Positions 18,837 to 60,590 of a stretch of 64,000 bases of DNA are shown here, one piece after another (position 1 is the stretch's first letter; every line of letters begins with the position of its first letter). This DNA comes from an uncultured bacterium (lineage in GTDB: Bacteria; Hydrothermota; Tepidihabitantia; CAYHGV01), in NCBI GenBank assembly GCA_964356135.1, contig CAYHGV010000001.1:8179-72178 (forward strand), given 5' to 3'. The position numbers and the translations under genes were made by a program. The notes under the pieces are model-generated. The model saw only the letters and a list, made by a program, of their open reading frames with translations, did not search any database and was not told the origin of the DNA.

Positions 18837-19616
18837 ATGTTACCTATGGAGGCTGAAGTAAAAGCTCCAAAAGAAGAAAAAGAAAACTGGTCAGAGCAAG
18901 AACTCGTTGTCGCCTTTAATTTGTACTGCAAGCTTCCTTTTGGTCAGTATCATAAACACAATAAAAAGGTAATTGAAATTGCTAAAATTCTTGGAAGAAC
19001 ACCGAGTGCGGTTGCGCTAAAATTATGTAATTTTGCAAGACTCGACCCGGTTCATCAAAAGCGTGGTATCAGGGGAATGAAACACGGGAGCAAACTTGAT
19101 GAGAAAATCTGGAATGAATTCAATCAAAACTGGGGTGGACTTTCATATCAGAGTGAAATTGCACTTGCCCAATTAAAAGGTCTTAAACATTACGGTTTGA
19201 TAAAAGACACGGAGAAGTTTCCCCCAGGTAAAGAAAAAGAAGCACTTGTTAAGGCGAGGATAAATCAGAATTTTTTTCGTGAGATGATATTGGCAGGTTA
19301 CAGAAATAGGTGCGCGATATGTTCTTTACCTGAAGTAAATTTATTAGTGGCTAGCCATATTATACCATGGTCTGAGAATGCGGATTTACGAATGAATCCA
19401 AGAAACGGAATTTGTATGTGTGTTTTACATGATAAAGCTTTCGATAAGGGTTTAATCACGATCAATGGTGATTATAAATTATTACTTTCGAAAATACTCA
19501 AAAGACTTTCTAAAGAACCAGCTATTCAAAGGGGATTCATTTTTTACGAGAGTTTTAAAATAAGACTACCTGATAAATTTATTGAATTCCATCGAAATGA
19601 GGTATTTATCGGATGA
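18837..19616 (+). CDS. HNH endonuclease-domain protein (restriction-enzyme-like HNH_2 type) with an N-terminal domain of unknown function.
   Basis: C-terminal RCAICSL...LVASHIIPWS...NGICMCVLHDKAFDKG (Cys pair plus the H-N-H core). Confidence 0.7.
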   Translation: MLPMEAEVKAPKEEKENWSEQELVVAFNLYCKLPFGQYHKHNKKVIEIAKILGRTPSAVALKLCNFARLDPVHQKRGIRGMKHGSKLDEKIWNEFNQNWGGLSYQSEIALAQLKGLKHYGLIKDTEKFPPGKEKEALVKARINQNFFREMILAGYRNRCAICSLPEVNLLVASHIIPWSENADLRMNPRNGICMCVLHDKAFDKGLITINGDYKLLLSKILKRLSKEPAIQRGFIFYESFKIRLPDKFIEFHRNEVFIG

Positions 19617-19763
19617 TAATCAGTACTTAACAATTCGATGCTGATTGAAGAGGAAGATATGAGGCAAGGTGGTCTTGACGAGATGTTGTTTTTAATTACA
19701 CTTATATCTAAGGAAACAAGTAATGAATTCCTATGCCTGTCGAAATGATTTCAAAGGATTATT

Positions 19764-20771
19764 ATGACAAAATTTGAGGTTAACCTGAACGAGAAATTTG
19801 CTTTGATTGCTGTCAGTACGTATGTTGACCGTGAATTACCATCTGAAAGACAGTATGCTCATGACCTTTGGGCAGTAAAGCTGCTACCTATCGGTGTCGG
19901 TAATCTCTGGGAGAAATGGCTGGGAAGTATCCTGATGGATCGATTAAAAAAAAGCAGTTTGTTTTTTATTGCCAAAGGCCCTTCGACCAATCCGGAACTT
20001 CTTGATGGAGACAACAAGAAATATATGAATCGAGTTTTTAATTTTTATAGGGGTTTGTTACTAAGTGGATTTCATATCGTAGATTCACCTATTCAATTAA
20101 CAGGGGTCAATAATGACCAAATAATAGATGTCCGAGAGATTGGCGAGCTTCCGAATCCTCGTTCTATCAGTGGTGAACATAACCAAAATGTCGATTCCAT
20201 ACAACTTATAGATGCTGCAAAGGTTGCCGATGCCATCAGGGATTTGCCAGGTCGAGGGAAGCTCTCGCGGTTTAAACGGATTTTGAATGCCTTTTTAGGC
20301 GGTATTGAAAGTTATTATGTGGAAGACAAAATTCATCAATTCTGTCGATGTATCGAAGGTTTCATCTACCCAGAGGTAGGGAAGACAAAGAGCCGATTCT
20401 GTTCACGAACTGAGTTGTTTCTCGGCCCACGCAATCATACGCTGATGGATCATTTGTATGATATTCGCAGTGCGGTAGAGCATATGCATAACCCACTGGA
20501 TGCAATTAGTGGCAGAAGTGGGAAGGAAAAGCGTCTTCTACTGTTACAGCGAAGCATCGAGGCAGAAGCGGTCGCTCGCTATTGCATTCGTCATCTGTTG
20601 CTGAATCGAAATTTATGGCAATATTTTGAAAATGAAAGCACACTAAATGACTTTTGGAAGAATAAGACAAATGCTGAACGGCAAAATATTTGGGGTGAGC
20701 CGTTTGATATCGGTGCTGTCTCAACCGGGTTCGATCCTACTATTTATAATGATGCGGACCTTGGTTTTTAA
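19764..20771 (+). CDS. Hypothetical protein with an Rx4H motif (RSAVEH); possibly a HEPN-like abortive-infection or RNase-type effector.
   Basis: The ORF contains YDIRSAVEHMHN (Rx4H), lies between the HNH and methyltransferase genes, and has lower GC than the flanking core genes. Confidence 0.45.
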   Translation: MTKFEVNLNEKFALIAVSTYVDRELPSERQYAHDLWAVKLLPIGVGNLWEKWLGSILMDRLKKSSLFFIAKGPSTNPELLDGDNKKYMNRVFNFYRGLLLSGFHIVDSPIQLTGVNNDQIIDVREIGELPNPRSISGEHNQNVDSIQLIDAAKVADAIRDLPGRGKLSRFKRILNAFLGGIESYYVEDKIHQFCRCIEGFIYPEVGKTKSRFCSRTELFLGPRNHTLMDHLYDIRSAVEHMHNPLDAISGRSGKEKRLLLLQRSIEAEAVARYCIRHLLLNRNLWQYFENESTLNDFWKNKTNAERQNIWGEPFDIGAVSTGFDPTIYNDADLGF

Positions 20772-20836
20772 AGGGAGCTTAGTAGGTGAGGGTGAAGAGT
20801 AAATGGATAATTTTGTGAATATTGAATTTAATAGGA

Positions 20837-22120
20837 ATGAATACATTACATAAAATAATCATCGGGGATTCGAGGGTAATGAAAGAGGTGGTGGATGAGT
20901 CGGTTCATCTGATCGTTACCTCTCCGCCTTACTGGCAGCTTAAGGATTATGGCAATGGGAAGCAGATAGGGTTTAATGATACCTACGAGGAATATATCAA
21001 TAATCTCAATCTTGTCTGGAATGAATGCCATCGGGTTCTGCATAAGGGCTGTCGTTTGTGTGTGAATATCGGCGACCAATTTGCCCGTTCGGTTTATTAT
21101 GGAAGATATAAGGTTATTCCAATAAGAACTGAAATAATCAAGTTTTGCGAAACGGCCGGTTTTGATTATATGGGTGCAATCATCTGGCAGAAGGTGACGA
21201 CCTGTCACACTACCGGCGGAGCAACGGTGATGGGTTCTTTTCCTTATCCAAGAAGTGGAATTCTTAAGCTTGATTATGAGTTTATTTTAATTTTAAAAAA
21301 ATATGGGGGTGGTCCGAAAGTTGGCAAAGAAGTCAAAGAACAATCGAGGTTAACACAAGAGGAATGGAATCAGTATTTTACTGGCCACTGGAATTTTGCC
21401 GGTGAAAAGCAGGATAAACACCTGGCGATGTTCCCGGAAGAACTGCCGAGGCGGCTTATCAAGATGTTTAGCTTTGTCGGAGATACCGTTTTAGACCCAT
21501 TTCTCGGCAGCGGCACGACCTCTTTAGCTGCTAAAAAGCTGAATCGTAATTCTATCGGCTACGAAATAAACGGCAGTTTTCTCAAAGTCATTAAAGAAAA
21601 GTTGGAAATAAGGCAGGGGTTAATCTTTCAAAACTCTCAATCTGAGATAATCGAGCAAGCGAAGTCTAAAACAGATTTCGCTGAAAGGATAAAAAGACTG
21701 CCCTATATCTTTAAGGACCCGATTAAATTCGATAAAATGGTTGACCCAAGAAAGTTAAAATTTGGCTCAAAGATTGATAATACCCATGCTGAACGGGAAA
21801 AGTATTATACGGTTAAAGAGATTGTCAGCCCGGAAATACTGGTTTTAAGCAACGGTTTAAAAATCAGGTTGATTGGAATAAGAGCGAAATCGGCAAAGAA
21901 TGAAGAAGCGATTCAATTTTTAAGAGAAAAAACCCGAGGGCAAAGGGTATTTATGAGGTTCGACGCTGTCAAATATGACGATAAAAATAACTTGTTGTGT
22001 TATTTGTACTTATGGAATAAAACCTTCATAAATGCTCACCTGATTAAAAATGGTCTGGTTGATGTCGATACGACTTTTGACTATAAATATAAGGCAAAAT
22101 TTTTATCGAAAGGAATGTAA
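20837..22120 (+). CDS. Beta-class DNA methyltransferase (N4-cytosine or N6-adenine) with a C-terminal degenerate SNase/OB-like domain.
   Basis: Motif IV (IVTSPPY) precedes motif I (VLDPFLGSGTT), which gives the beta-class order. The C-terminal ~150 aa fit the thermonuclease fold pattern (KIRLIGI...VFMRFD...NAHLIKNGLVDVD) but lack the DGD and D-PE catalytic residues. The ORF track begins at TTG 20822. Confidence 0.8.
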   Translation: MNTLHKIIIGDSRVMKEVVDESVHLIVTSPPYWQLKDYGNGKQIGFNDTYEEYINNLNLVWNECHRVLHKGCRLCVNIGDQFARSVYYGRYKVIPIRTEIIKFCETAGFDYMGAIIWQKVTTCHTTGGATVMGSFPYPRSGILKLDYEFILILKKYGGGPKVGKEVKEQSRLTQEEWNQYFTGHWNFAGEKQDKHLAMFPEELPRRLIKMFSFVGDTVLDPFLGSGTTSLAAKKLNRNSIGYEINGSFLKVIKEKLEIRQGLIFQNSQSEIIEQAKSKTDFAERIKRLPYIFKDPIKFDKMVDPRKLKFGSKIDNTHAEREKYYTVKEIVSPEILVLSNGLKIRLIGIRAKSAKNEEAIQFLREKTRGQRVFMRFDAVKYDDKNNLLCYLYLWNKTFINAHLIKNGLVDVDTTFDYKYKAKFLSKGM

Positions 22121-22122
22121 TA

Positions 22123-22827
22123 ATGCCAAAGGAATGGATAAAAGGCGTTGAGGGCTGCGCTCTAAAGTTCAAAAGAGAGGGTTTGTTAAACGCTGCGATG
22201 AACCGTTGGGGTCTTAATAAGGCGCACAGCGTTGATACGACTTCAGAACTGATACGACAATGTTCTCCTCGATCTTTTGCAGAATGGGAAAGGTTTTATT
22301 TTAGCAATGCGAAACAAAAGAAGCGGGACGGGGTTAGGATTACAAAAAAATATTTGAAAGATTTAGGAAGGAAGCTCTATATTAAATTAACGGAAGTTGT
22401 TCAGAGTGAAATAGAATCTATTACAGAGGAAGAATGCATAGATTATGTTTTTAATCTTGTATTGAATCGAACATTTGAGGGTTATCGGTCTGAAATCCGG
22501 ACCGTTTATGGACAATTGCAGGATGCCTTGGGAGTCAGTGTCGAACCCGCTCCCGATGAGTGGGATCGGGGTTATAATGTGGATTTTTTCATTAAGGTTA
22601 AGGATAAATACATTGGCCTTCAGATCAAGCCCGCAGGATTCGCTTACATTCCGCAAATCATTAATGAATTGGGGTTTCAGAAAAAGACCCATGAAAAATT
22701 TATTGCTAAATATGGTGGTAAAGTATTCTATATAATTTCAGTCAAGGAGGGTAAACAGAAAAAAATCCATAATACCGAAGTTATTGAAAAAATTAGGAAA
22801 GAGATTCAGAGGTTGGAAAAATTATAA
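22123..22827 (+). CDS. Hypothetical protein; candidate PD-(D/E)xK-type restriction endonuclease partner of the adjacent methyltransferase.
   Basis: It begins 3 nt after the methyltransferase stop, is 234 aa, and contains GYNVDFFIKVKDKYIGLQIKP, which may be a D...K/ExK-like core. There is no firm family match. Confidence 0.4.
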   Translation: MPKEWIKGVEGCALKFKREGLLNAAMNRWGLNKAHSVDTTSELIRQCSPRSFAEWERFYFSNAKQKKRDGVRITKKYLKDLGRKLYIKLTEVVQSEIESITEEECIDYVFNLVLNRTFEGYRSEIRTVYGQLQDALGVSVEPAPDEWDRGYNVDFFIKVKDKYIGLQIKPAGFAYIPQIINELGFQKKTHEKFIAKYGGKVFYIISVKEGKQKKIHNTEVIEKIRKEIQRLEKL

Positions 22828-56676: not shown

Positions 56677-56721
56677 TGATATTCCTCCTTGGTCAAAGTT
56701 ATTCGATTATTTCTTATATTG

Positions 56722-56982
56722 TCAAATACTTTCAGTCTCGGGTTCGAGATTATAGTAGTTTGTCCAGAAAACGACGGTTTTGTGTGCTAACCCACGTTTG
56801 GCTTTAACCACCTGTTTCAGGTTAGTATCGGAATAGGTCCGGCGCAACCAGTTGAGTGCACGCACATCACCGAAATCGAGCACCCGCCGGATGATGAATT
56901 GAGAATGGCGGTCGATGTCAACCGTTTCCTTTCGGACATCCCAGAAGAGACGCTGGACATAGGAGGGGATGAGCCGTTTCAT
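56722..56982 (-). CDS. Hypothetical 86-aa protein. It is about 90% identical to the product of 57703..57969.
   Basis: ORF. The paralogue pair was noted by direct comparison. No family is recognised. Confidence 0.45.
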   Translation of the reverse strand: MKRLIPSYVQRLFWDVRKETVDIDRHSQFIIRRVLDFGDVRALNWLRRTYSDTNLKQVVKAKRGLAHKTVVFWTNYYNLEPETESI

Positions 56983-57447: not shown

Positions 57448-57702
57448 TGAACAATGGTAACTAAAGACAAATAGGTGTCAAGTTTTGGTTTAAAAACTGG
57501 CCGGTGCATAGGAATTCAAAAATAAATAAGTGATTTGGTCTTTATTGCGCCGATCCGTTTCTGCGGTGCCGACCTCCTGCCCGTGTCAACTCGATACTCG
57601 TTCAAGGTGATATAGAACCAACTCTTGGGCGAAAAGCGGTATTACTTCTTTACTTATGCCTGACCCCATTAACCTGACCCTGGTTCTTGGGAAAGGACTT
57701 CG

Positions 57703-57969
57703 TCAAACACTTTGGGTTTCGGGTTCGAGGTTATAGTAGTTTGTCCAGAAGACAACGGTTTTGTGTGCTAACCCGCGCTTGGTTTCGACAATGTTTTTTA
57801 ACTTAGTATCAGAATAGGTCCGGCGAAGCCAGTTGAGTGCACGCGCATCACCAAAATCGAGCACCCGCCGGATGATGAATTGAGAATGGCGGTCCGGGTC
57901 AACCGTTTCTTTGCGGACATCCCAGAAGAGACGCTGGACATAGGAGGGAATTGACCGTTTCATAGCCAC
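57703..57969 (-). CDS. Hypothetical 88-aa protein, paralogue of 56722..56982.
   Basis: ORF with about 90% amino-acid identity to the 86-aa paralogue. It is preceded by a ~120-bp repeat that is also found at 57545-57665. Confidence 0.45.
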   Translation of the reverse strand: MAMKRSIPSYVQRLFWDVRKETVDPDRHSQFIIRRVLDFGDARALNWLRRTYSDTKLKNIVETKRGLAHKTVVFWTNYYNLEPETQSV

Positions 57970-58261
57970 ACTATAAATCGGATATCACCAAAGTCAAGTT
58001 TTCGATCGGTTTTTGACCGTTTACTGAATTTGGGTCAAAAAAAGGGGAGTTTATTCTACCGATCCGTCCTTATGGCACCGATCGGTTGCCCGTGTCCACC
58101 CGATACTCATTCAAGGCGGTTTAGACCCACCTTTTGGGCGAAAAGTTGTTATATTTCTTTACTTGTCCTGCCACAGGATTTCCCTTGGGAAAAAAGGTCG
58201 CTTTTCCCATTTTCCTGTCCCAAAAAATAGTCACTGCTTCCTATCAGCCCCAAAGTCAAAA

Positions 58262-59290
58262 CTATTTCTGTGATTTAATAAGTTTGAGCGAACGATTCAA
58301 CTGTAAAAGGAGAATAGCTTGAATCCCTTTGGGAGTTATGTAAAAATGATTAGCAACTTTCGCTAAAAACTCTAATTCACAGGCATAATTTGAGAAAATA
58401 TAAGTAGCAGTCTCTCGTGCTCTGTCTGTTTTCCAGGTTTCACCTTTACCGACGGATTTCACGAAATAATCTTGGACGGCATCCTTGGGTACTGGATAAA
58501 CGTTTTTCGCTAATACAAAGACAGACTCAACAATGGAAAAAATGGTATAAGTTATTGAAGAATGGAATGGATTTTCTTTTACAAAATCTGATAATAATTC
58601 AATCTGTTTATCATTTAATCTATCATCTACCATTCCACCACCTGCGTCTAAAAGGGCATTCCCAAGATCTGTTAAAAAATATTCCTGCTTAAATTTAGCG
58701 ACAAGGCCCAGTAATGTCGCTACTGATAAACGATTTCTGACAGTCTTTTCTGATCTGTTTTCAATGGTGCAAATATCTTTAATGTTTTTGCCTTGAGCCA
58801 ATATTTGTAATATAGGATTAAGTAGACCGAGTCTGACCATACCATAGTCGCCAGATTGTATTTTCAGAAAATACGAAAGCTCTTTGAAATTTTCATAGTA
58901 TTTCGAGAGAACGAATTCGGGTTTATAGGTTAGAAGTGTAATAGAGTTTTCTTTACATCTTTCAATATCTTCAGTTCTAGCCTCTGTTACCAGTATAAAT
59001 TTTCTGATTTCTACATTTATTAATTTATGTTGGGTTTGTAAATCTTGTAGATCCTTGAAATACGCGTTAATTTGACAAATTATATCACTGCAAAAAGCAC
59101 CGATTTTCAATTCAATGAGAAGTAATTCATCTTCATGCAGATAGATTAGGTCAAGTTTCCCAGTTTTTAAGATTTTTTGACGGGCTATAAAACTTAAGTT
59201 AGCAGGATTTGCCGAAAGAATTTCCGCTAAAATGGATTTATCGGCGCTCAAAATATCCTCAATCATTTTTTCTGAAATCAAATCATTCAT
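58262..59290 (-). CDS. Hypothetical protein with an N-terminal PD-(D/E)xK nuclease-like motif, encoded in an AT-rich island.
   Basis: GKLDLIYLHEDELLLIELKIG (D...ExK). GC content is about 33%, against about 55% for the flanks. Confidence 0.55.
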   Translation of the reverse strand: MNDLISEKMIEDILSADKSILAEILSANPANLSFIARQKILKTGKLDLIYLHEDELLLIELKIGAFCSDIICQINAYFKDLQDLQTQHKLINVEIRKFILVTEARTEDIERCKENSITLLTYKPEFVLSKYYENFKELSYFLKIQSGDYGMVRLGLLNPILQILAQGKNIKDICTIENRSEKTVRNRLSVATLLGLVAKFKQEYFLTDLGNALLDAGGGMVDDRLNDKQIELLSDFVKENPFHSSITYTIFSIVESVFVLAKNVYPVPKDAVQDYFVKSVGKGETWKTDRARETATYIFSNYACELEFLAKVANHFYITPKGIQAILLLQLNRSLKLIKSQK

Positions 59291-59511
59291 TCTTCGATAT
59301 ATGGGTAAAAATTTTGCTCGTCGGTAATTTTAAGCCCTTCGACTAACCATTCTCTTATTATATCTCTAATCTCTCCAATCATTTCTATGTCCCATTCGAT
59401 ATTTTTCTTGGTAGGATTTACCATTAGAATAAGTTGATAAATAGCATTATCAACAAAATCTTGTCTATCAATTTGTTCACGCGTCAATTTTTTCATGTCG
59501 TTTCTACTCAT
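59287..59511 (-). CDS. Hypothetical 74-aa protein. It overlaps the start of the PD-(D/E)xK gene (ATGA) within the same AT-rich island.
   Basis: ORF with a 4-nt overlap to the downstream gene and matching low GC. Confidence 0.4.
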   Translation of the reverse strand: MSRNDMKKLTREQIDRQDFVDNAIYQLILMVNPTKKNIEWDIEMIGEIRDIIREWLVEGLKITDEQNFYPYIEE

Positions 59512-59846
59512 AGGTAGAGAATTGCTTTGCTGTTAGGGTCCAATTTCGCCGAATTTCTTTAAGCCAAGTTGACCTCACATTCTCTGTTTCATCAATCTGG
59601 TTCATTATTCAGTCCCTTTTTTAACTCTCATAGCTGTAATATACAGAAAACATCTGAGTTGTCAACTAAAAAAATGGGGATTTCTGAAAAAGTCATCAGA
59701 AATCTTGATTACTCGGCACCAAAGGTGCCGCGCGATTATATGACGATGCCGGTGATACAATCCCTTGAATTTCCATCGCTGCAATCGTTTCCCTCATCGC
59801 CGGAATCAATGAGAGCGAGTTTTTCAGAGCTCTCGAAGGTTTCCCT

Positions 59847-59931: not shown

Positions 59932-60132
59932 ATGTTTGGTAAAGTCAAATGGTTCGATGGAAAGAAGGGCTATGGTTTCGTCGAACTGGAAGACGGTAGT
60001 GGCGATGTATTCGTTCACTTTCAGGATATAGTGGGTGAAGGATATAAAACCCTTAATGAAGGCGAAAAAGTTAGTTTTGATATAACTGACAGCCCGAAAG
60101 GTAAGAAAGCCACAAACGTTGCACGGGCGTAA
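59932..60132 (+). CDS. cspA: Cold-shock protein (CspA family, S1-like cold-shock domain).
   Basis: GKVKWFDGKKGYGFVELEDGSGDVFVHF contains the RNP1 and RNP2 motifs. Confidence 0.9.
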   Translation: MFGKVKWFDGKKGYGFVELEDGSGDVFVHFQDIVGEGYKTLNEGEKVSFDITDSPKGKKATNVARA

Positions 60133-60257: not shown

Positions 60258-60590
60258 TTAACCATAGATAACATTCCCTTCGTCTTTAGCCGCGTTGATT
60301 ATTATAGAATCGCCTTGCTCCCATTCGGTATCCGAATAATACATAATGTCAAACGGTTTTTCGGTCTTTTTTACCAGTTCTCTATTTACGCCGGTTGTCA
60401 TATCCACCCTTTCAAATATGTCTTTATTCCGAAAATCTTTAGAAACAATTATTATATCGATATCACTATTTTTGTTATGATTGCCTTTTGCGTATGAGCC
60501 GAAAACGATTATCTTTGAAACCCGGATGCTTCGGTCTTTGAGCAATTTTAATAAGAGGTCGGTTATTTTTATCTTCTTTGTTCTAACCAT
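60258..60590 (-). CDS. Minimal nucleotidyltransferase (MNT-type, Pol-beta superfamily) without an adjacent HEPN partner.
   Basis: IIVFGSYAKGNHNKNSDIDIIIV shows the GS...DxD nucleotidyltransferase motif. Confidence 0.7.
   Translation of the reverse strand: MVRTKKIKITDLLLKLLKDRSIRVSKIIVFGSYAKGNHNKNSDIDIIIVSKDFRNKDIFERVDMTTGVNRELVKKTEKPFDIMYYSDTEWEQGDSIIINAAKDEGNVIYG

Follow-up and report, generated by a model that had tools for sequence, protein, structure and literature searches.

The closest described counterparts of the locus presented here are restriction enzymes that join a nuclease domain to winged-helix (wH) modules, a repair nuclease with a related catalytic fold, and the small controllers of restriction-modification (R-M) operons. 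DpnI, FcyTI and Psp4BI are PD-(D/E)XK-wH fusions in which an N-terminal nuclease is followed by one or more wH readers (PMC11037411), and modification-dependent nucleases usually stand alone, 87% of them lacking a methyltransferase within three genes (Helbrecht et al. 2024, PMC11037411). NucS/EndoMS (Pfam NucS_C, PF01939; PDB 2vld, 5gke) is a vertically inherited repair nuclease whose catalytic domain lies at the C terminus, with an N-terminal domain for dimerisation and binding of single-stranded DNA. In the type IIS enzymes and nickases FokI, PaqCI and the large subunit of N.BspD6I/Nt.BstNBI, recognition modules of the wH type are tethered to a separate cleavage domain. C proteins are Xre-type helix-turn-helix (HTH) dimers of ~80-100 aa with C-box operators. 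Here we compare with these systems an AT-rich two-gene insert in a 64,000-nucleotide (nt) stretch of contig CAYHGV010000001.1 from an uncultured Hydrothermota bacterium; this whole stretch is the window referred to below. The insert codes for a 342-aa protein, predicted to be a nuclease with two wH modules, and for a 74-aa acidic protein. The nuclease-wH family to which the larger protein belongs is uncharacterised and behaves unusually, in that it lies within R-M operons, survives their loss and is surrounded by polar decay. Tentatively, and with less than even confidence, we read the insert as the surviving core of a transferred MvaI/BcnI-type R-M cassette, made up of a self-sufficient restriction-type nuclease and a modulating partner.

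The two genes overlap on the minus strand, as a sequence-only reading of the window had proposed, and share an ATGA, i.e. they are translationally coupled. An AlphaFold2 (AF2) model of the 342-aa protein, with 31 homologues as input (pLDDT 80.8), consists of an alpha/beta nuclease (residues 1-136), a disordered linker (139-150), a canonical winged helix-turn-helix (wHTH; 154-206) and a helical C-terminal part with a second wH-like module (~269-318) and a long terminal helix. The C-terminal HTH of the earlier reading is thereby borne out as a region and corrected in part as to its place, the first module being central. The nuclease domain has the alpha-beta-beta-beta-alpha-beta core of the PD-(D/E)xK superfamily, and its motif GKLDLIYLHEDELLLIELKIG (residues 44-64) contains D47, E60 and K62. 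Across 25 sequences reaching down to 20% identity, E7, D47, E60 and Y77 do not vary, and D12, K62 and Q73 are conserved to 90% or more, which bears out the D-x(n)-ExK core that had been called from the window alone. Specifically, the window copy retains every catalytic residue of the full E...D...ExK...QxxxY site of RecB/NucS-type nucleases (E7, D47, E60-x-K62, Q73xxxY77). Judged by modelled fold and catalytic motif alike, the protein belongs to the NucS/RecB-like branch of the PD-(D/E)xK superfamily. Its best-conserved portion is the region of residues 269-339, which holds the near-invariant block TPKGIQAILLLQLNRS.KLI and gives extended structural matches to the type IIS enzymes FokI, N.BspD6I and PaqCI.

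Neither protein has a match above curated thresholds in Pfam, NCBIfam, PHROGs or PADLOC. Below threshold, the 342-aa protein resembles a YhcG-type PDDEXK domain (residues 21-88; YhcG_C, E 0.008) and a winged helix (residues 160-215); six of its 25 relatives match NucS_C and nine match HTH_45. A profile search of the PDB by sequence returned marginal LuxR/GerE HTH matches only, and a structure search gave NucS/EndoMS as the nearest fold of the nuclease domain. This likeness concerns the catalytic fold alone: the nuclease is N-terminal here and C-terminal in NucS, the NucS N-terminal domain is replaced by two winged helices, and NucS is inherited vertically, whereas the present family has a mobile distribution linked to R-M. 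Membership of the NucS/EndoMS family proper was rejected on the reversed domain order and the lack of a NucS_C match in the window protein. The suggestion of an Mrr-like effector did not hold either, since Mrr_cat matches are absent from the window protein and all 25 relatives, Mrr_N is weak and confined to two relatives, and the domain order is the opposite. DpnI and its kin share the domain order, and in both cases the gene can occur with no methyltransferase, as it does in this window; by sequence, no similarity to DpnI was detected, and the protein differs in having two wH modules and 342 rather than ~254 aa. The largest structural coverage comes from N.BspD6I (256-264 aligned columns) and FokI (167 residues), but compared with type IIS enzymes the domain order is again reversed, the protein is much shorter, and it stays intact without any methyltransferase. 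In sum, the likeness to NucS is one of catalytic fold, that to the DpnI class one of architecture and that to type IIS enzymes one of overall layout; the 342-aa protein is not a member of NucS and departs from the other two in the features just given.

In composition, too, the insert stands apart. Its GC content (positions 58262-59511) is 33.2%, against a window mean of 49.4% and a standard deviation of 4.8% among 1250-nt windows (z = -3.4), and it is the lowest-GC 1.25-kb stretch of the whole 64 kb, in agreement with the drop to ~33% noted before at 58.26-59.52 kb. GC at third codon positions (GC3) is 0.28 in the 342-aa gene and 0.29 in the 74-aa gene, compared with 0.55-0.64 in the genes for AspRS, a 707-aa protein and the DUF6922 proteins; the deviation therefore lies at the codon level and is not an amino-acid effect alone. 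The figure of ~55% GC first given for the neighbours was too high, the immediate flanks lying at 0.40-0.49 and 0.55 being reached only far off. One edge of the island is a repeat block of host type, D2', with host-type DNA back by ~58165; at the other, near 59700, GC climbs and the promoter region of the cold-shock gene csp starts. No pair of direct or inverted repeats flanks the insert, the only matches around it being short 15-mers at chance level; the 115-nt D2 repeat is part of the duplicated DUF6922 operon next to it. A transposon or insertion sequence (IS) was rejected as well: the insert has no terminal inverted repeats or target duplication, no transposase match in Pfam and no conserved border sequence.

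The family is small and compact. A word-indexed search of ~5.8 billion protein clusters returned 332 close homologues, nearly all of 340-345 aa, 60-78% identical and unnamed, and an exhaustive search of 1.84 billion representatives with a hidden Markov model returned 166 matches, ~30 of them full-length; full-text literature searches yielded no account of the family. Its members are spread over more than 12 bacterial and archaeal phyla, with loci in Desulfobacterota, Ignavibacteriota, Bacteroidota, Armatimonadota, Planctomycetota, Nitrospirota, Chloroflexota, Spirochaetota, Marinimicrobia, WOR-3, Acidobacteriota and Cloacimonadota and in the archaeal Altiarchaeales and Methanoperedens; plasmids gave one distant match, i.e. 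almost no carriage. The nuclease gene is AT-richer than its flanks in all 35 genome loci that have flanks and in almost all of 80 metagenome loci, with deficits of 5-22 points and sharp boundaries, and at two loci (L022, L018) the gene by itself forms a sharply bounded AT-rich island among housekeeping genes. The GC and GC3 deficits and the spread over more than 12 phyla, archaea included, support the horizontal acquisition proposed at the outset. They also bear on the idea of a housekeeping-type repair nuclease that was acquired sporadically, for instance one with NucS-like mismatch or flap processing. Although NucS/EndoMS is the nearest fold and the gene is under strong purifying selection (see below), such a role is highly improbable: the distribution is patchy across phyla and the compositional foreignness lasting, the gene is embedded in R-M operons, the NucS N-terminal domain is absent and the domain order reversed, and 166 representatives among 1.84 billion proteins make for a tiny family. 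Two further loci types carry insertions. At L030 (6531-8912), a nuclease homologue is split by ~1.3 kb with an opposite-strand 366-aa open reading frame (ORF), probably an IS element. At L015 (5231-5900) and L013 (9050-9710), ~500 bp with two ORFs of 64-70 aa directly follow the nuclease gene, flanked by an 86-nt direct repeat that copies the beginning of the ydeI-like gene downstream; no such insertion is present at the related L016.

The link to restriction and defence drawn by the sequence-only reading finds support in other genomes, where the pair sits within MvaI/BcnI-type R-M operons or Dpd-like modification clusters. The usual same-strand operon comprises an N6_N4 DNA methyltransferase (M), the small protein, the nuclease gene and an MvaI/BcnI-family endonuclease (R; Pfam E 5e-64), and stop and start codons frequently overlap in these four-gene cassettes. 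A methyltransferase and a second small nuclease in one operon recall the heterodimeric BspD6I. Five unrelated methyltransferase architectures occupy the first position. In a sister clade, 30-45% identical, the partners are the same, with the methyltransferase upstream and MvaI_BcnI downstream (80 metagenome loci). A haloarchaeal clade (~27% identical) is adjoined in four of four contexts by Dpd-like 7-deazaguanine DNA-modification genes: on the Halobaculum marinum plasmid NZ_CP119991 (L047), a TGT-family (DpdA-like) transglycosylase with QueC, QueD, QueE and FolE; in L133, L134 and L135, a TGT-family gene, together with a BrxC/D-like ATPase in L133 and L135. Helicases or an extra nuclease lie nearby in two of the four, and the haloarchaeal Dpd-like cluster may count the nuclease-wH protein as an undescribed component. 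The association of the family with systems of DNA modification and restriction is, as such, a consistent one across differing chemistries. Identities of the nuclease and of R correlate weakly (r = 0.37), which speaks against strict co-inheritance of the two as a single unit and in favour of modular shuffling, with modules exchanged at the borders of the unit.

The components of the cassette decay very differently, as counted over 115 non-redundant loci, 80 of which are informative for the methyltransferase. The nuclease is intact at 94 loci and broken at 18 (absence without trace not being applicable to it), while the methyltransferase is full-length at seven, partial at 36 and gone without trace at 37, and the MvaI/BcnI endonuclease is full-length at nine, partial at 26 and without trace at 49; all three are intact at just three loci. 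Among syntenic Ignavibacteria without the R-M genes, where at most a 41-codon stub of the methyltransferase remains, the nuclease has a ratio of nonsynonymous to synonymous substitution rates (dN/dS) of 0.055-0.065 at dS 0.84-1.4, indistinguishable from that of the flanking pta and ydeI-like genes in the same organisms. A dN/dS of ~0.06 at syntenic loci without R-M genes indicates that the nuclease gene has been inherited vertically there, under strong purifying selection after the loss of R-M. A classical type II restriction endonuclease was rejected on these data, since persistence without a methyltransferase is unlike a methylation-sensitive enzyme, which could not tolerate the loss of M. 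More broadly, survival and constraint together speak against restriction of the methylation-sensitive kind, against a controller dedicated to R and against a role in mobility alone.

The second of these, a regulator of the R-M or modification operon, deserves separate consideration. As a large analogue of C proteins, the 342-aa protein would bind an operator with its winged helices and time the expression of R, its nuclease fold acting as a sensor. Its gene indeed occupies the usual position of a C gene, directly upstream of R and overlapping the R start in intact cassettes (L008, L031); the protein has two wHTH modules, and the family is associated with two unrelated modification chemistries, N4/N6 methylation and the Dpd-like type. 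Membership of the C-protein class was nevertheless rejected, given 342 aa with a nuclease domain and the lack of any conserved operator motif in the 130 nt upstream of the small gene (27 loci); downstream of the stop codon, too, no conserved border motif was found. A protein that only sensed would have no need of the full E..D..ExK..QxxxY set that is kept down to 20% identity, and a dedicated controller would be useless at the loci where the gene persists at dN/dS ~0.06 after both R and M are lost. We therefore consider a regulatory role unlikely.

The available data are compatible with a model in which the insert descends from a transferred R-M cassette. In the ancestral cassette, the pair would have followed the gene for an N4/N6 DNA methyltransferase and preceded that for an MvaI/BcnI-like endonuclease. 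Its large gene is predicted to encode a catalytically competent DNA endonuclease, in which a flexible linker connects the PD-(D/E)xK domain with two wH modules, and its small gene, on the same transcript, an acidic protein of two helices. After transfer, the methyltransferase and endonuclease genes would decay while purifying selection holds the pair, which suggests that the nuclease is harmless to its host without the cassette methyltransferase and useful by itself. Most likely, it would act as a restriction-type effector, with the winged helices steering it to foreign DNA (e.g. modified, nicked or otherwise marked), and the small protein might, by conjecture, modulate the activity or the expression of the nuclease. 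What the analysis shows directly is the fold, the conserved active site, the genomic association, the unequal decay and the selection; the substrate, the part in defence and that of the small protein are inferred. The proposal that the insert is the remains of a mobile element is better put as the core left over from a mobile R-M cassette that has decayed.

Several points weigh against this model. The role it gives to the small protein is purely conjectural. The cassette already has an endonuclease of its own, and the need for a second nuclease is not accounted for. A full or partial methyltransferase lies directly upstream at 43 of the 80 informative loci, as opposed to 13% for the modification-dependent nucleases in PMC11037411. 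No family match was found among the phages of INPHARED and IMG/VR. In PADLOC-DB 2.0 no system matched at a meaningful level: the best matches (E 2.6e-4 to 6e-3) cover the wHTH or the nuclease core alone, and the small protein has none. Absence from PADLOC models and from phages means that independent evidence for defence is lacking. Finally, the truncations of M and R that abut the pair are strongly polar, which the model does not predict.

In truncated methyltransferases, the 5' part is always kept and the part beside the small gene lost; in truncated endonucleases, the 3' part is almost always kept and the part beside the nuclease stop codon lost. The junctions fall 0-45 nt from the unit on both sides, with ~17 distinct cases per side against 0-2 of the opposite kind. 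This pattern could arise if selection kept the pair expressed from the methyltransferase promoter without polar effects while the endonuclease start was removed; an open alternative is that breaks or recombination are anchored at the borders of the unit. A retained terminator was rejected as the cause of the 3'-biased endonuclease remnants, since L006, L008 and L019 contain no intrinsic terminators. The sole locus where the 5' end of the endonuclease is kept (~35-46 codons; L017, 9014-9643) has this stub fused to the 3' two-thirds of an M1-type methyltransferase, with an M2-type methyltransferase upstream, a fusion that suggests recombination between two different cassettes.

The border pattern raises the question whether the pair itself drives the movement and rearrangement of the cassette, as a mobility or recombination nuclease that cuts at the borders of the unit in the manner of a homing endonuclease or an Rpn-type protein. 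The one-sided M and R remnants would follow from such cutting, and the shuffling at the borders (five methyltransferase types, four partner types, weak correlation between nuclease and R) and the solitary islands of L022 and L018 are in line with it. Yet terminal inverted repeats, target duplications and a conserved border motif are all missing, the orthologous position has been held for a dS of ~1 under strong purifying selection, phage collections do not contain the family and plasmids hardly do, and the truncations could equally reflect the selection on expression described above. Such a function is thus quite doubtful. A related and likewise improbable view holds that the small protein and the nuclease-wH protein form an autonomous module that rides on R-M or modification cassettes and outlives or even erodes them, or else a class of stand-alone restriction nucleases with exchangeable small modulators. 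In the case of erosion, the nuclease acting at its own borders would have left its footprint in the losses strictly anchored there, of the 3' part of the methyltransferase and of the 5' part of the endonuclease.

The 74-aa protein has no match whatever in Pfam, NCBIfam, PHROGs or PADLOC, and its model is a two-helix hairpin without a structural relative or a DNA-binding fold. Small acidic partners (isoelectric point, pI, 4.1-4.6) overlap the start or the stop of the nuclease gene, and four unrelated types were distinguished: A, that of the window; B, a four-Cys zinc ribbon; C, DUF551-like and downstream; and D, also downstream. The DpnI cassette also has a small gene of unknown function. The small partners of the nuclease gene invite a toxin-antitoxin (TA) interpretation, in which the nuclease is the toxin, the acidic protein its antitoxin or immunity protein, and loss of the small gene kills the cell. 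The overlap of the two genes agrees with it, as does the swapping of at least four unrelated partners at one position, known from TA systems, including an exchange of types A and B beside the orthologous nuclease gene in related Ignavibacteria. But the pair is not an obligate two-gene unit as expected of a type II system. At six loci (L014, L022, L024, L023, L028, L045), an intact nuclease gene has no small partner, and type-A proteins 70-77% identical to that of the window head HinfI-type R-M operons that lack the nuclease and consist of A, a 532-aa methyltransferase and a HinfI endonuclease. The 74-aa protein is, contrary to the first impression, no dedicated partner. Non-exclusive, interchangeable partners weaken a strict TA reading; addiction, moreover, would select for the antitoxin and not for the toxin, whereas it is the nuclease whose constraint resembles that of a core gene, and the small protein lacks a DNA-binding fold. 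We regard addiction as an improbable explanation. On Nitrospirota-like contigs (L050, 4001-6623; L051, 1284-3906; L048; L049), the gene for a 69-aa type-A protein (70-75% identical to that of the window) comes first in HinfI-type R-M operons, and in this group it remains beside RNR and TA genes after the HinfI-type system has decayed or been replaced. Every rival explanation considered here covers some of the data and conflicts with at least one feature that was tested.

Table 1 Features of the insert and of its surroundings in the window (ATGA, shared overlap of the two genes; AF2, AlphaFold2)
Feature	Position	Strand	Basis or remark
AT-rich island, approximate extent	58166..59700		100-nt GC profile
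342-aa nuclease and winged-helix protein, whole gene	58262..59290	(-)	ORF; 332 homologues of same length; AF2 model
N-terminal NucS/RecB-like PD-(D/E)xK nuclease domain, residues 1-136	58883..59290	(-)	Catalytic core motif 59099-59161
First winged helix-turn-helix, residues 154-206	58673..58831	(-)	
Second winged-helix-like module and long C-terminal helix, residues 269-339	58274..58486	(-)	Secondary structure of model
74-aa acidic small protein, type A	59287..59511	(-)	Coupled to 342-aa gene by ATGA
Promoter-like TTGACA-16-TATATT	59638..59665	(-)	~125 nt upstream of small gene; 11/12 consensus positions
DUF6922 gene, first copy	56721-56982		DUF2283 partner kept
115-nt block, first copy	57541-57655		
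DUF6922 gene, second copy	57702-57963		No DUF2283 partner
115-nt block, second copy (D2')	58050-58164		~100 nt from stop of 342-aa gene
Cold-shock gene (csp)	59932-60132		
MNT-type (MntA-like) nucleotidyltransferase gene	60258-60590	(-)	110 aa; GC 0.35
Second AT-rich island	18837-22827		GC 0.36-0.41; four ORFs
N4/N6 'SPPY' DNA methyltransferase gene	20822-22120		432 aa

Within the window, tblastn found no remnants of a methyltransferase or an endonuclease beside the pair, which is therefore left as an end-state orphan that apparently has a promoter of its own. The promoter-like site (Table 1), strong and of the sigma-70 kind, is only a match to the consensus, the number of such sites in the region not being above chance. 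Going by the family length of 69 aa, the true start of the small gene is probably the second ATG, at 59496 (the sixth codon). The window copy, then, is an ordinary orphan member of its family, and the feature is real, foreign and intact.

Its neighbours are a DUF2283/DUF6922 pair, a second DUF6922 gene, csp and the MNT-type nucleotidyltransferase gene. Both the DUF6922 gene (87% identity between copies) and the 115-nt block upstream (76%) are duplicated, and it is at the second block that host-type DNA resumes. The adjacent nucleotidyltransferase had rightly been called an orphan, as no HEPN partner lies on either side; its gene forms a separate small AT-rich patch beside csp. The 'defence cluster' in which these genes had been grouped with the insert dissolves into a mere juxtaposition of small accessory genes, for which no functional link to the pair was found. 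Farther away, the second AT-rich island encodes an HNH-type protein of 259 aa, a 335-aa protein, the 'SPPY' methyltransferase and a 234-aa protein, and is probably another R-M or defence cassette; this methyltransferase is the only one in the window that is related to those of the cassettes studied here.

Taken together, these findings bear on how mobile R-M cassettes establish themselves, decay and leave useful genes behind. If the proposed reading is true, MvaI/BcnI-type R-M systems and archaeal Dpd-like systems hold an unrecognised third component, a nuclease, on which long-term selection is stronger than on the canonical M and R. The repertoire of defence and restriction would gain an uncharacterised nuclease-wH family and several families of small partners, and new sequence- or modification-specific nucleases could come of it. 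Should the pair instead erode the cassettes on which it rides, it would represent a new kind of selfish or domesticated element that parasitises R-M systems. The polar decay around the pair is a concrete and testable oddity in the genome dynamics of R-M systems.

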